Source: Gemmatimonadota bacterium
Lineage (GTDB): Bacteria; Gemmatimonadota; Gemmatimonadetes; Palauibacterales; Palauibacteraceae
Assembly: GCA_965116475.1 (NCBI GenBank)
Contig: OZ220691.1
Coordinates: forward strand, 1,888,001 to 1,952,000
Length of the DNA stretch: 64,000 bases
Direction: 5' to 3'
Shown: piece after piece, positions 2,009 to 4,806 of the stretch
How positions within the stretch are numbered: the first letter of the stretch is position 1
Layout of the letters: every line of letters starts with the position of its first letter
Notes under the pieces: model-generated
Seen by the model: the letters and a program-made list of their open reading frames with translations, nothing else
Told to the model about the DNA's origin: nothing
The model's database searches: none
Position numbers and translations under genes: made by a program

Positions 2009-3589
2009 TCACTCCAGAACCGTGGCCTGGAACGCTCCCGTGAGGACGCGGCCGTCGCGCTTCACCTGAACCCAGATCGTGTACTCGCCCGGCTGGGGGA
2101 ACGCGAACGGAAACTCGACGACGCCGGTGGGGGCGTCCGTCCCGCCGCCCGCCATCGGCGATCCGTCCGGCGCGAGCACCGAGAGCGATCCCATCGAGAT
2201 CGTGCCCGCGGGATGCAGGTGGACGAACACGGCGCCGTCGTCCCGCGTGAGCGCGGCGTGGCTGAGCATCCCCATGTAGGGCTCCAGTTCGGCCGGCTTC
2301 TCGTCGGGGTCCCAGAGCCTGAATGCGAGGACGGTCTCCTCGTCGACACGAAGTTCCTGGTTCCCCTGCCATTCGAGGATCGAACCGTCGTCCAGCCGTG
2401 CCTCCGAACCCGGCCCGGAGAGCGCGACCGGAACGCCCGTCCATGCCGAGTCGTCCGGGTCGCCTTGCAGGCCCGCCGGTTCGCGCGGCCGCAAGGCCTG
2501 GGCCTCGGGGGGCGCGACGCCCTCCTCGGGGGCCGCCGCCGAAATCGCCAGCGCCGCCGGGTCGACGATCACCGTGTCGACGACCGTCTGCGCGAAACCG
2601 GACTCCTGGACGATGTCGCCGTAGATGCGGTACTCGCCCGCCGGCAGGTCCGGCCACGGGACGCGGAACGTGGACGAGTCCACGGGAACGGGGTGTATGT
2701 GGGCGAACGCGTCCATGCCCGGCGCGCCGACCACGAACAGGTGCATGAGCTTGCCGTGGTCCGGCACCAGCGGGCTCCAGTTGCGGCCCCGCCAGGCGGG
2801 ATCGATAATCGCGATCTCCAGAGCGGGCCTCCCCCCATCGCGCACGAGCGCGCCCTCGACGGCGAGACGCTCGAAGATCCCGCTGCGAACGTCCCGGTCG
2901 ACCGACTCCCACCACGCGTTCCCCAGGTAGAGGAGACCCGCGACGCCGACGGCCGTGAAGGCCATGGCGATCCGGGCGCGGCGACGCCGTTTCGGGCCCG
3001 CCTCCTCGCCCGCCGGGATCTGGCTCTCGCGCACCGCGGCCCCCGTGATGGAGACCACGCCGGCGACGAGCAGAAGCCCCAACGCGGCCAGGATCCAGCC
3101 CAGCCCCGGCGGCAGGTCGCGCACGCCGAGCATGACCGAGGTCACCGGGACCGAGACCTCGCCGCTCCCCCGACTCCCCTCCACGGCGATCTCGATCCGG
3201 TAGGCGCCCACCGTCATGAGCCACAGTTCGGCGGCGTACAGTTCCGGATCGCCCGCCACGGGGACGGCCACGTCGGGGGGCGGCGCTCCGCCTTCCGGGG
3301 CCGCGTCCCAGCGCACGGGGCGCACGGTCACGCGCTCCGCCCCGCCGCCCGACACGCGGACGGAGATCTCCGCCAGCCCCGGGATGACCTCGGGGGGACG
3401 GATGACGACGGACACGGGATAGGGGCCCGCCTCGCCCGAGAAGAACACGTTGTTGCTCCCGACGTGCCCCGTCGCCACGACGTACAGCCCGACGACGAAC
3501 GCCGCCGCGCGCGTCAGCCGGGCGACCCGGCCGCGCGTCCCTCGGACGGTCTGGCCGCGCGTCAGTCGGGTAGCCCGGCCGGGTCTCAC
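2009..3589 (-). CDS. Exported membrane-anchored His/Met-rich putative metal (copper)-binding protein
   Basis: GTG overlaps the upstream TGA (GTGA); signal-like segment followed by HVGS; two central TM helices; DHGKLMHLF..FAHIHP and PYMGMLSHAAL..FVHLHP motifs; C-terminal FPQPGEYTIWVQ. Confidence 0.75.
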   Translation of the reverse strand: MRPGRATRLTRGQTVRGTRGRVARLTRAAAFVVGLYVVATGHVGSNNVFFSGEAGPYPVSVVIRPPEVIPGLAEISVRVSGGGAERVTVRPVRWDAAPEGGAPPPDVAVPVAGDPELYAAELWLMTVGAYRIEIAVEGSRGSGEVSVPVTSVMLGVRDLPPGLGWILAALGLLLVAGVVSITGAAVRESQIPAGEEAGPKRRRRARIAMAFTAVGVAGLLYLGNAWWESVDRDVRSGIFERLAVEGALVRDGGRPALEIAIIDPAWRGRNWSPLVPDHGKLMHLFVVGAPGMDAFAHIHPVPVDSSTFRVPWPDLPAGEYRIYGDIVQESGFAQTVVDTVIVDPAALAISAAAPEEGVAPPEAQALRPREPAGLQGDPDDSAWTGVPVALSGPGSEARLDDGSILEWQGNQELRVDEETVLAFRLWDPDEKPAELEPYMGMLSHAALTRDDGAVFVHLHPAGTISMGSLSVLAPDGSPMAGGGTDAPTGVVEFPFAFPQPGEYTIWVQVKRDGRVLTGAFQATVLE

Positions 3590-4806
3590 CGGCGGACGCG
3601 CAGCCACCAGTTCCCCAGCCACAGCCCCGAGCGGGCCGAGACGAACGCGATCGGCAGCGCCCACCACGCCGCGGACAGGAAGCGCGAAGCCGAGAACTCG
3701 CCCCCAAGGAACTGGCCGCCGTGCCAGAACACGTTCTCCCAGTTGCCGGGCGCCGCCGTGTAGCCCCACGTGTTGCCCTGGAAGAAGTAGTTCCGCGCCC
3801 CGTCCGACAGCATGAAATCGGCGAACACCCACTGGATGACGCCGAAGACGCCCACGAAGGCGACGCCGCCCACGGCCGCGATCCGCCAATCCGCCGAGGC
3901 CCGCTCGGGCGCCTCTCCCGGCGCCGAATGCCGCCGCAGCAGGAGGTCGATCACGATCGCCGGCGCGAACAGGAGGAGCGGGAACTCGGGCGCCACCATG
4001 TGGGTGACCGGGCGCAGGATCGGCGCCAGCATCGGCTCCGCCGGGAAGAGCGGCAGCACCCACATCATCGCCAGCGAGATCCCCGTGTAGATCAGCGTCG
4101 CGCACGTCGCGGGCCAGCGCATCTGCCCGGCCCGCCCGATGGCGAAGAGGAGGACGGGGAAGAGCCCCGCCATGATGAGGTGGAACGTGGCCCCGTGCAT
4201 CTGGTTCGGGAACGTGTACTCCATGAGCAGCACGGAGAGCGACAGGATCAGCATCGCGGCGCTGAACACGTACGCCCACGCGAGCTTGCGCCGGCCCGTC
4301 TCCGAGGCGCGGTTGTGCCACGACAGCGCCATCAGGAGGGCGCCGACCTGGATTGCATAGATTCCAAGCGCGAGGACGACATGGGGCGGGCTCAGGATCT
4401 CGACGTCGAGCCCGTACGCGTTGTGCCACCAGTCGTCGAGCGGCGCGGACGCGAGCATGGCGATCGCGCCCCAGATCGCCACCCATGCCCCGAGCGGCGC
4501 CCGGAACCCCCACAACCGCACGGAACGCCCCACTTCCCCGTCCGTCCCGGAGAACGTCGTCTTGAGCGCGAGCCACCCGCATGACAGCCCCGCCGCCAGC
4601 CCGCCCGCGTAGACCAGCAGGTGGGCCGGCGTGAAGAGCGTGTCGCGCCCGATCGTCCGGTGCCACGAGATATCCCACGTGATGCCCACGATCACCGCCG
4701 CCGAGGCGAACAGGACCGCGCTCAGATACCACGGGATGCTGTCCGCCGACTCCGCCGCGCCCTCGCGCTCCGTGAAGACCGAAGCCGGTGCTACCGTCGA
4801 TTCCAT
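3586..4806 (-). CDS. Polytopic membrane protein with two PmoC/AmoC-like DxxxH(x12-13)H motifs
   Basis: WDISWHRTIGRDTLFTPAH and LDDWWHNAYGLDVEILSPPH in a largely hydrophobic protein; ATG at 4806. Confidence 0.8.
   Translation of the reverse strand: MESTVAPASVFTEREGAAESADSIPWYLSAVLFASAAVIVGITWDISWHRTIGRDTLFTPAHLLVYAGGLAAGLSCGWLALKTTFSGTDGEVGRSVRLWGFRAPLGAWVAIWGAIAMLASAPLDDWWHNAYGLDVEILSPPHVVLALGIYAIQVGALLMALSWHNRASETGRRKLAWAYVFSAAMLILSLSVLLMEYTFPNQMHGATFHLIMAGLFPVLLFAIGRAGQMRWPATCATLIYTGISLAMMWVLPLFPAEPMLAPILRPVTHMVAPEFPLLLFAPAIVIDLLLRRHSAPGEAPERASADWRIAAVGGVAFVGVFGVIQWVFADFMLSDGARNYFFQGNTWGYTAAPGNWENVFWHGGQFLGGEFSASRFLSAAWWALPIAFVSARSGLWLGNWWLRVRR

Follow-up and report, generated by a model that had tools for sequence, protein, structure and literature searches.

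A 64,000 nt stretch of the genome of a Gemmatimonadota bacterium (assembly GCA_965116475.1, contig OZ220691.1, positions 1,888,001 to 1,952,000), referred to below as the window, carries on its minus strand two overlapping genes for membrane proteins, designated here gene 1 and gene 2 (Table 1). The open reading frame (ORF) of gene 1 extends from an ATG at 4806 to a TGA at 3588-3586, and gene 2 begins with a GTG at 3589-3587 that overlaps this stop codon; the GTGA overlap from which an initial annotation of the sequence had proposed translational coupling is present on the minus strand as described. The GTG is the sole canonical start 5' of the hydrophobic leader of gene 2, with no other in-frame ATG, GTG or TTG before the core of the signal peptide, and a 526 amino acid (aa) protein identical to the gene 2 product is already contained in the database. 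The start of gene 1 was assigned on the basis of a Shine-Dalgarno-like AGGGGA 6-7 nt upstream of the ATG and of relatives of the same 406 aa length that align over 100%. Both proteins lack a Pfam or NCBIfam family at curated cut-offs. Their closest named relatives belong to Candidatus Palauibacter (Gemmatimonadota); all named relatives are entered as 'hypothetical protein' and all but one are without a precomputed Pfam domain, the exception being a relative of gene 2 annotated with PF13115.

Upstream of the gene 1 ATG, GGGGAACGC occurs as three direct copies within 32 nt (4808-4839, minus strand), at 4831-4839, 4821-4829 and 4808-4816, the last of which is also the Shine-Dalgarno-like site. 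The triplet could be a regulatory or slippage-prone element.

Table 1. Features of the gene pair, in window coordinates. PmoC residues are numbered as in the available part of PMC12576850. TM, transmembrane.
Feature	Position	Strand	Remarks
Gene 1	3586..4806	minus	406 aa, polytopic, about 10 TM helices, unannotated family; begins MESTVAP
PmoC/AmoC-like four-helix core, residues 26-166	4309..4731	minus	Helices 26-51, 60-86, 105-131 and 140-166
CuC-like motif D45-x3-H49-x4-R54-x7-H62	4621..4674	minus	Aligned with PmoC D156/H160/R165/H173
CuD-like motif D124-x3-H128-x13-H142	4381..4437	minus	Aligned with PmoC N227/H231/H245
C-terminal six-helix module, residues 172-402	3601..4293	minus	Without conserved His; helices from model
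Stop-start overlap of genes 1 and 2	3586..3589	minus	Bases 3589..3586 are GTGA
Gene 2	2009..3589	minus	526 aa: signal peptide, three periplasmic beta-sandwich domains, two-helix membrane hairpin (predicted)
Signal peptide, residues 1-41	3467..3589	minus	Predicted cleavage ATG↓H; Arg-rich n-region, hydrophobic core, small residue at -3
Domain 1, residues 42-150	3140..3466	minus	Opens with near-invariant His42; weakly YtkA-like
Two TM helices, residues 161-188 and 199-238	2876..3109	minus	Joined by Arg-rich cytoplasmic loop KRRRRAR
Domain 2, residues 244-342	2564..2860	minus	H278-x4-H283 and H297-x-H299-P; beta strands in model
Domain 3, residues 381-526	2012..2449	minus	Y-M439-G-M441-x2-H444 and H457-x-H459-P; weakly CopC-like

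The N-terminal part of gene 1 resembles PmoC and AmoC, the C subunits of particulate methane monooxygenase (pMMO) and of ammonia monooxygenase. When residues 23-165 were searched with phmmer against the 177,635 distinct sequences of the PDB, all 12 matches at E ≤ 10 were AmoC or PmoC chains, with a best E value of 2.1e-5, a result that places the PmoC match made by the initial annotation beyond chance. The full-length protein matched two AmoC chains in the same sequence set (E 6.6e-5 and 3.8e-4), and a profile of the N-terminal domain, constructed from 24 sequences that included actinobacterial members at 30-37% identity, retrieved 14 matches, all of them AmoC or PmoC (best E 2.2e-3). Pfam AmoC (PF04896) matched the whole protein at E 1.1e-3 (18.8 bits) and residues 1-165 at E 2.7e-4 (20.9 bits), both under the cut-off of 26.7 bits, while the NCBIfam models TIGR03078 (E 5.4e-4, 19.5 bits) and NF041641 (E 1.3e-3, 18.1 bits) fell far below cut-offs of 280.6 and 319. 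Among 29 relatives of gene 1, AmoC was the commonest family match, being found in 9 with Pfam and in 11 and 9 with the two NCBIfam models. Residues 166-406 matched no monooxygenase subunit in sequence searches of the PDB or Pfam, and no sequence relative outside the gene 1 family was found for them in the PDB, Pfam or the ESM Atlas; matches in the last were confined to unnamed clusters from within the family, and the best score for the C-terminal half (0.79) was uninformative. A tblastn search of phages with gene 1 gave a single chance match.

For the oxidation of methane and ammonia, the candidate sites at present are CuC and CuD of PmoC, which to our knowledge have so far been known only within the copper membrane monooxygenases (CuMMOs). 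In the available part of PMC12576850 the pMMO ligands are given as Asp156/His160/His173 for CuC and Asn227/His231/His245 for CuD, Arg165 of PmoC is given as a hydrogen-bonding second-sphere residue, and the homologous pMMO sites are stated to contain copper. On that numbering, all six ligand positions and Arg165 (R54 in gene 1) are aligned between the two proteins with identical spacings, namely x3 and x12 in the first motif and x3 and x13 in the second. The first motif, DISWHRTIGRDTLFTPAH (residues 45-62, window 4621-4674), was the basis of the original proposal, which compared it with a PmoC motif given as DGTWHQTIVRDTDFTPSH; the latter matches PDB chains 7s4l_C and 6cxh_C in the alignment, and 12 of the 18 residues are indeed identical, with the same D-x3-H-x12-H spacing. 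The resemblance is real and broader than was first noted, since it also spans the CuD ligand set D124/H128/H142 and the equivalent of Arg165.

Conservation of the ligands within the family was counted in 151 representatives of clusters formed at 50% identity, at 32-66% identity; denominators are the sequences with a residue at the column. In the CuC-like motif D45 was kept in 113/113, H49 in 105/115, R54 in 103/118 and H62 in 116/119, and in the CuD-like motif D124 was kept in 140/144, H128 in 133/144 and H142 in 140/148. The six ligand positions are thus 91-100% conserved and rank as the most conserved residues of the gene 1 family, which answers in the affirmative the earlier suggestion that conservation of the Asp and His residues be checked in homologues.

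The AlphaFold2 model of gene 1 had a mean predicted local distance difference test score (pLDDT) of 85.6 and a predicted template modelling score (pTM) of 0.87. Each Asp-x3-His ends a helix in this model (26-51 and 105-131) and each lone His opens the next (60-86 and 140-166). A common pattern, D-x2-W-H...H, recurs in both hairpins and suggests that they arose from an old internal duplication. Loops on the side opposite the ligand sites are rich in Arg and Lys (RSVRLWGFR and GRRK are examples), so that the positive-inside rule would put the sites on the periplasmic face, along with the domains of gene 2.

The likeness to PmoC and AmoC accordingly lies in a four-helix core of two hairpins, each with (D/N)-x3-H closing one helix and H opening the next. 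Gene 1 encodes 406 aa with about 10 helices, whereas PmoC has approximately 250-290 aa and 5-6 helices (PmoC and AmoC chains in the PDB are of 236-289 aa); the PmoC-like part of gene 1 is N-terminal and the N-terminal helices of PmoC itself are absent; Asn227 of PmoC is replaced by Asp; no pmoA or pmoB adjoins gene 1; and the gene is found in Gemmatimonadota, Acidobacteriota and other heterotrophs. On sequence grounds, the gene 1 protein is a distant relative of PmoC and not a PmoC, because of its approximately 10 TM helices and its scores under the family cut-offs.

Comparison of the gene 1 model with PDB structures using Foldseek, for which the best 50 matches were listed, yielded no match at E ≤ 1e-3. 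Four chains of pMMO (6cxh_B, 7s4h_B, 9cl2_Ca and 9cl1_Ca) were nevertheless given probabilities of 0.90-0.97, with target-normalised TM-scores of 0.50-0.52 over approximately 255 alignment columns and E values of 0.24-0.6; all other listed matches had probabilities of 0.41 or less, and nothing in a viral library exceeded 0.28. Unexpectedly, these four chains are PmoA and not PmoC: PmoC is chain C of 6cxh and chain 'Ba' of 9cl1 and 9cl2, and chains A and C of 7s4h carry the PmoB and PmoC ligands, respectively. No PmoC chain occurred among the best 50 matches listed in this comparison, which the initial annotation had suggested. Since the aligned residues were not reported by Foldseek, the match may mean either that the six C-terminal helices of gene 1 are PmoA-like, making the protein a fusion of C and A, or that helices 1-7 overlay the seven of PmoA. 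Among the PDB chains listed, only those of PmoA were rated at 0.90-0.97. The E values were those given above, the 10 helices of gene 1 compare with 7 in PmoA, and residues 166-406 showed no sequence similarity to PmoA in the PDB, Pfam or NCBIfam.

The product of gene 2 was analysed with an alignment of 24 sequences and a wider set of 68. Its leader ends ...VVATG↓HVGS, and His42 is present in 67 of the 68 sequences, preceded at position -1 by Ala in 47 and Gly in 19 (66/68 together) and at -3 by a small residue. This arrangement fits cleavage by signal peptidase I immediately before His42, which would then be the mature N-terminus, in keeping with the earlier claim of a His directly after the leader. 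An N-terminal His is typical of copper proteins, for example those with a histidine brace. The AlphaFold2 model (pLDDT 77.4) contains beta-sandwiches at residues 48-150, 244-342 and 381-525. In domain 2, H278, H283, H297 and H299 are each present in 68/68 sequences, and in domain 3 the same is true of H444, H457 and H459, with M441 in 67/68 and M439 in 55/68; Met-x-Met-x2-His is characteristic of copper-binding proteins of the periplasm. Judged by their parallel motifs, domains 2 and 3 look like repeats. In domain 1, His42 is the sole invariant His of residues 42-150 in the 24-sequence alignment.

Sequence similarities of gene 2 were weak. YtkA (PF13115) was matched at E ≤ 1 by 10 of the 24 relatives (best E 2.3e-6), the protein from the window itself scoring 13.7-16.3 bits against a cut-off of 25.9, and CopC (PF04234) was matched by gene 2 at E 0.002-0.04 (15-19.5 bits; cut-off 23.3). 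In the PDB a gene 2 profile weakly matched 9ll2_A, a 'Copper resistance protein' (E 0.18), a similarity assigned to domain 1, and a profile of domains 2 and 3 gave only generic immunoglobulin (Ig)-like matches in the PDB and Pfam. The best 50 Foldseek matches listed for gene 2 were generic tandems of Ig and fibronectin type III (FnIII) domains with no PmoB among them, and neither gene 2 nor its 24-member alignment matched a PmoB or AmoB sequence in Pfam, NCBIfam or the PDB.

According to PMC12576850, PmoB opens with a His, followed in order by a periplasmic domain, a pair of TM helices and further periplasmic sequence, and has a CuB site completed by an HxH (His137/His139 in M. capsulatus). 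Gene 2 is alike in having a predicted signal peptide followed by a conserved His, then a domain, two TM helices and further domains, and in being encoded directly after the membrane subunit. It differs in having three Ig-like beta-sandwiches rather than the two cupredoxin-like barrels of PmoB, and in the position of its HxH-P motifs, which are in domains 2 and 3, one of them with Met, and not in the first domain. Of the PmoB-like layout put forward by the initial annotation, the leader with its His, the first domain and the two TM helices were upheld, whereas the single second soluble domain was not, there being three beta domains in total. A relationship of gene 2 to PmoB is not supported: no sequence match was found, no PmoB was among the best 50 fold matches listed, and the N-terminal domain lacks the HxH of the CuB site described in that source.

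Relatives of gene 1 formed 2,044 clusters (50% identity) at E ≤ 1e-3 and 1,071 at E ≤ 1e-10, and at least 597 were found among 600 matched stretches taken from one genome per species. Counts of loci were made on the best 80 of these at least 597 loci, which belong to Gemmatimonadota, Acidobacteriota (Thermoanaerobaculia, Vicinamibacterales and Blastocatellia), Verrucomicrobiota, Eisenbacteria and Methylomirabilota. A relative of gene 2 lay directly downstream of the gene 1 relative, on the same strand, in 80/80 loci, and the co-occurrence of the two genes that had been proposed is therefore the rule. The pair is established as a conserved two-gene membrane module that combines twin Asp/His/His sites of the PmoC type with a His-rich periplasmic partner having a predicted N-terminal His. 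Clustering of the ORFs of the 80 loci detected no other family in more than 10/80. Recurrent neighbours were DUF885 proteins, peptidases, amidohydrolases, an Fe-alcohol dehydrogenase and a redoxin. The peptidase and DUF885 neighbours were rejected as functional partners, their occurrence in no more than 10/80 loci fitting lineage synteny. In the window the pair is accompanied by genes for an M48 peptidase, a diphthamide-synthase-like protein, a beta-lactamase-fold hydrolase, a DUF885 protein and an S9 peptidase; the diphthamide-synthase-like gene downstream (1306-1977) is not conserved beside the pair and was rejected as a member of the module.

No true fusion of genes 1 and 2 was found among database proteins. 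Three proteins longer than 711 aa were considered and rejected as probable read-throughs of frameshifts or mis-called genes, the signal peptide of gene 2 being retained inside them; Arg/Ala-rich stretches separate the gene 1 and gene 2 parts in these three apparent fusions. One record, CALQJI020000047.1, labelled 'MAG: Klebsiella pneumoniae', carries the gene pair, which comes otherwise from metagenome-assembled genomes (MAGs) of Gemmatimonadota, Acidobacteriota and Verrucomicrobiota type; the bin label is probably wrong. The initial annotation had stated that canonical pmoCAB genes are absent from the window. Scanning of 42 of the 44 window ORFs of at least 110 aa with high G+C at third codon positions (gene 1 and one 112-aa antisense ORF being left out) agreed, with no AmoA, AmoB or AmoC family found in these 42, and gene 1, gene 2 and their relatives gave no match to the AmoA or AmoB family.

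More distant relatives were recovered from plasmids by tblastn. The gene pair, at 42% identity, is plasmid-borne in the cultured bacterium Chondrinema litorale (WSW3-B12), where it adjoins CorA and a resistance-nodulation-division (RND) pump. Longer single-gene relatives of 475-616 aa occur in Actinomycetota; at 24-37% identity, five of them carry both motifs exactly and a sixth has the second motif with a variant of the first. Copper or heavy-metal genes were present within 5-7 kb in six of seven annotated actinobacterial plasmid contexts. Streptomyces pFRL4 has a multicopper oxidase, DUF6153, CcsB/ResB, DUF5134 and a cupredoxin protein, and S. mirabilis has a cupredoxin, DUF5134, an HMA protein and a P-type ATPase. 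The Leifsonia context comprises a metal-sensitive (CsoR-type) regulator, two heavy-metal ATPases, YHS and HMA proteins, a multicopper oxidase, a four-helix-bundle copper-binding protein, ArsR/SmtB regulators and a cation diffusion facilitator. In M. vanbaalenii CopC lies directly upstream, accompanied by DUF305, a cytochrome oxidase assembly protein and TlpA; M. chubuense NBB4 has TlpA, CcdA and a CopY-family regulator, and M. aubagnense a YHS protein and a CopY-family regulator. The Rubrobacter context contained no copper or heavy-metal genes.

The actinobacterial relatives end in an extracytoplasmic domain that starts AxA↓HDPGQG (at about residue 326) after a hydrophobic segment. The junction looks like a signal peptidase site inside a polytopic protein; cleavage there would leave the C-terminal domain with His at its N-terminus, and in this the junction echoes the N-terminal-His partner encoded by gene 2. 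The C-terminal domain of one such relative was weakly FixH/YtkA-like. An hhalign comparison of the C-terminal domain of the Streptomyces relative with the gene 2 alignment was not significant.

Taken together, these data favour the view that the gene pair encodes an undescribed, periplasm-facing membrane complex that handles copper by capture and transfer, to which a probability of about one half is assigned. Capture and transfer are favoured because of the copper-island context of the distant relatives, the Met/His motifs, the weak YtkA and CopC similarity and the lack of a conserved redox or metabolic partner. Under this proposal gene 1 would be an inner-membrane protein of about 10 helices whose first four bear two mononuclear sites next to each other, where the hairpins end on the periplasmic side. 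Gene 2 would be exported and cleaved to free His42 as the N-terminus, as in histidine-brace copper proteins, and, anchored by its two-helix hairpin, would display three beta-sandwich domains, two of them with His or His/Met clusters. These domains may capture copper and hand it to, or receive it from, the twin sites of gene 1, the direction of transfer being conjectural, and the complex would then import copper, buffer it, or supply cuproenzymes of the membrane or periplasm. The metal is presumably copper and the two proteins are presumably in physical contact.

In CopC and YcnI systems a periplasmic or extracellular beta-sandwich protein binds Cu(II) through its N-terminal His and is encoded next to a polytopic membrane partner. 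CopC-CopD/YobA-YebZ and YcnI-YcnJ, described as copper uptake systems in the available parts of PMC12362106, PMC8424229 and PMC8689200, share with the present pair a periplasmic beta-sandwich protein, to which the weak CopC and YtkA likeness of gene 2 corresponds, and a neighbouring polytopic membrane protein. The proposed complex would be their functional analogue on a PmoC-type scaffold. It differs from them in that the membrane partner is PmoC-like rather than CopD-like, the CopD family giving no match for gene 1 or 29 relatives, and in that gene 2 has three domains and is itself anchored in the membrane by two helices.

Several observations weigh against a copper-handling complex. The copper context stems only from the distant plasmid-borne relatives, several of which were weak BLAST matches (E 0.03-7) accepted only on motifs and alignments, three of them at E 0.3-7 on the strength of having both motifs; the neighbourhood in Gemmatimonadota and Acidobacteriota is without copper genes, consisting mostly of peptidases and varying between loci. 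The AmoC, CopC and YtkA scores of the two proteins from the window are all under curated cut-offs, and the AmoC match was lost when a full-length family profile of gene 1 was searched against the PDB. Asp/His/His sites also bind Zn or Fe, and no genuine fusion of the two genes was found. Finally, the conserved residues correspond to the proposed catalytic sites of pMMO, so that the sequence leaves room for catalysis.

A catalytic role would make the pair a membrane oxidase or monooxygenase that depends on copper and is distantly sister to the CuMMOs. Gene 1 would then supply the CuC/CuD site, possibly with a PmoA-like module, gene 2 would take the role of PmoB, and the substrate might be, for example, a lipid-soluble small molecule. 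This reading is the main rival to copper handling and is considered rather unlikely. It accounts for the retention in gene 1 of every CuC and CuD ligand position together with the second-sphere Arg and for the PmoB layout of gene 2, both as pMMO is described in the available part of PMC12576850, and for the four PmoA chains as the sole listed PDB fold matches of gene 1 above a probability of 0.5; the gene order would be that of xmoCAB if gene 1 counts as C and A. Yet those matches have E values of 0.24-0.6 with unreported aligned residues, neither residues 166-406 nor gene 2 resembles PmoA or PmoB in sequence, the fold matches of gene 2 are generic Ig/FnIII tandems, and its domain 1 lacks the HxH that in the same source completes CuB. 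Furthermore, the 80 loci show no conserved reductase, dehydrogenase or other downstream enzyme next to the pair, the carriers are ordinary heterotrophs, and the distant relatives lie in metal-resistance islands. A stricter version, which takes the two genes for a compact homologue of the complete CuMMO, with a PmoC core and PmoA-like module in gene 1, a PmoB counterpart in gene 2 and the C-A-B order kept, is judged distinctly unlikely. If true, the pair would belong to a lineage sister or ancestral to the methane and ammonia monooxygenases, present in at least several hundred non-methanotrophic, non-nitrifying species, and would carry out a copper-dependent oxidation at a CuC/CuD-type site that has gone unrecognised. 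The initial annotation had left a choice between a two-subunit relative of the CuMMOs and a copper uptake or loading module; given the copper islands of the distant relatives the latter fits better, and a hydrocarbon or ammonia monooxygenase less well.

The same two-protein complex might instead serve another metal (Zn, Fe, Mn or Ni), or might sense or buffer metal in the periplasm instead of carrying copper, and this is regarded as improbable. Asp/His/His and multi-His sites are not specific to copper in general coordination chemistry, and zinc was contained in the PmoC site in early crystal structures, which counts towards such a role. So do the ArsR/SmtB regulators and cation diffusion facilitator of the Leifsonia context, the CorA and RND efflux pump next to the Chondrinema pair, and a weak match to TIGR03769 in 9 of 24 gene 2 relatives (best E 0.012). 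Against it stand the copper-specific nature of most of the informative neighbours (multicopper oxidase, cupredoxin, CopC, CopY-family and CsoR-type regulators, YHS proteins and the four-helix-bundle copper-binding protein), the Met-x-Met-x2-His motif and N-terminal His typical of copper proteins, and the copper held by the homologous pMMO sites (PMC12576850, available part). That the PmoC resemblance is convergent or fortuitous, gene 1 being an unrelated membrane protein whose Asp and His residues have a role without metal, is highly improbable. Every score was under its cut-off (18.8-20.9 bits against 26.7, and 19.5 against 280.6), the full-length profile lacked the AmoC match, and the best 50 Foldseek matches listed contained no PmoC chain; but two independent searches of 177,635 PDB sequences returned AmoC and PmoC exclusively, two separate three-residue motifs and an Arg align at exact spacing, and the family conserves no residues more strongly than the aligned ones.

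Searches of curated families, of solved structures and of the literature (open-licence PMC papers and bioRxiv) found no description of the gene 1 and gene 2 family. The gene 1 family is a metal-binding scaffold of the PmoC superfamily in a new architecture, and with gene 2 it constitutes a new two-gene system. It keeps the complete CuC/CuD ligand set in organisms whose growth is not based on methane or ammonia, and the pair is consequently a tractable outgroup for asking what role the CuC and CuD sites play and how the CuMMOs originated. The copper-handling complex favoured here would be a probable new route of copper handling in bacterial phyla abundant in soil, in the sea and in association with sponges. 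A cultured carrier exists in Chondrinema litorale WSW3-B12, with the pair on a plasmid.

Elsewhere in the window, a DUF305 protein (E 9.5e-44) is immediately followed by a 694-aa ORF without a Pfam family (17846-20692, plus strand). DUF305 also occurs in the copper-gene neighbourhood of M. vanbaalenii, and the locus could therefore be a second one related to metals. ORFs for a BrnT-family ribonuclease toxin (17250-17738) and a PIN-domain protein (33790-34230), both on the minus strand, are likely components of toxin-antitoxin systems. The region 6424-60671 is unusually dense in peptidases and hydrolases of secreted type, among them four S15 X-Pro dipeptidyl peptidases, two S9 peptidases, DUF885, several amidohydrolases and two beta-lactamase-fold proteins, a content that fits a protein-degrading heterotroph.

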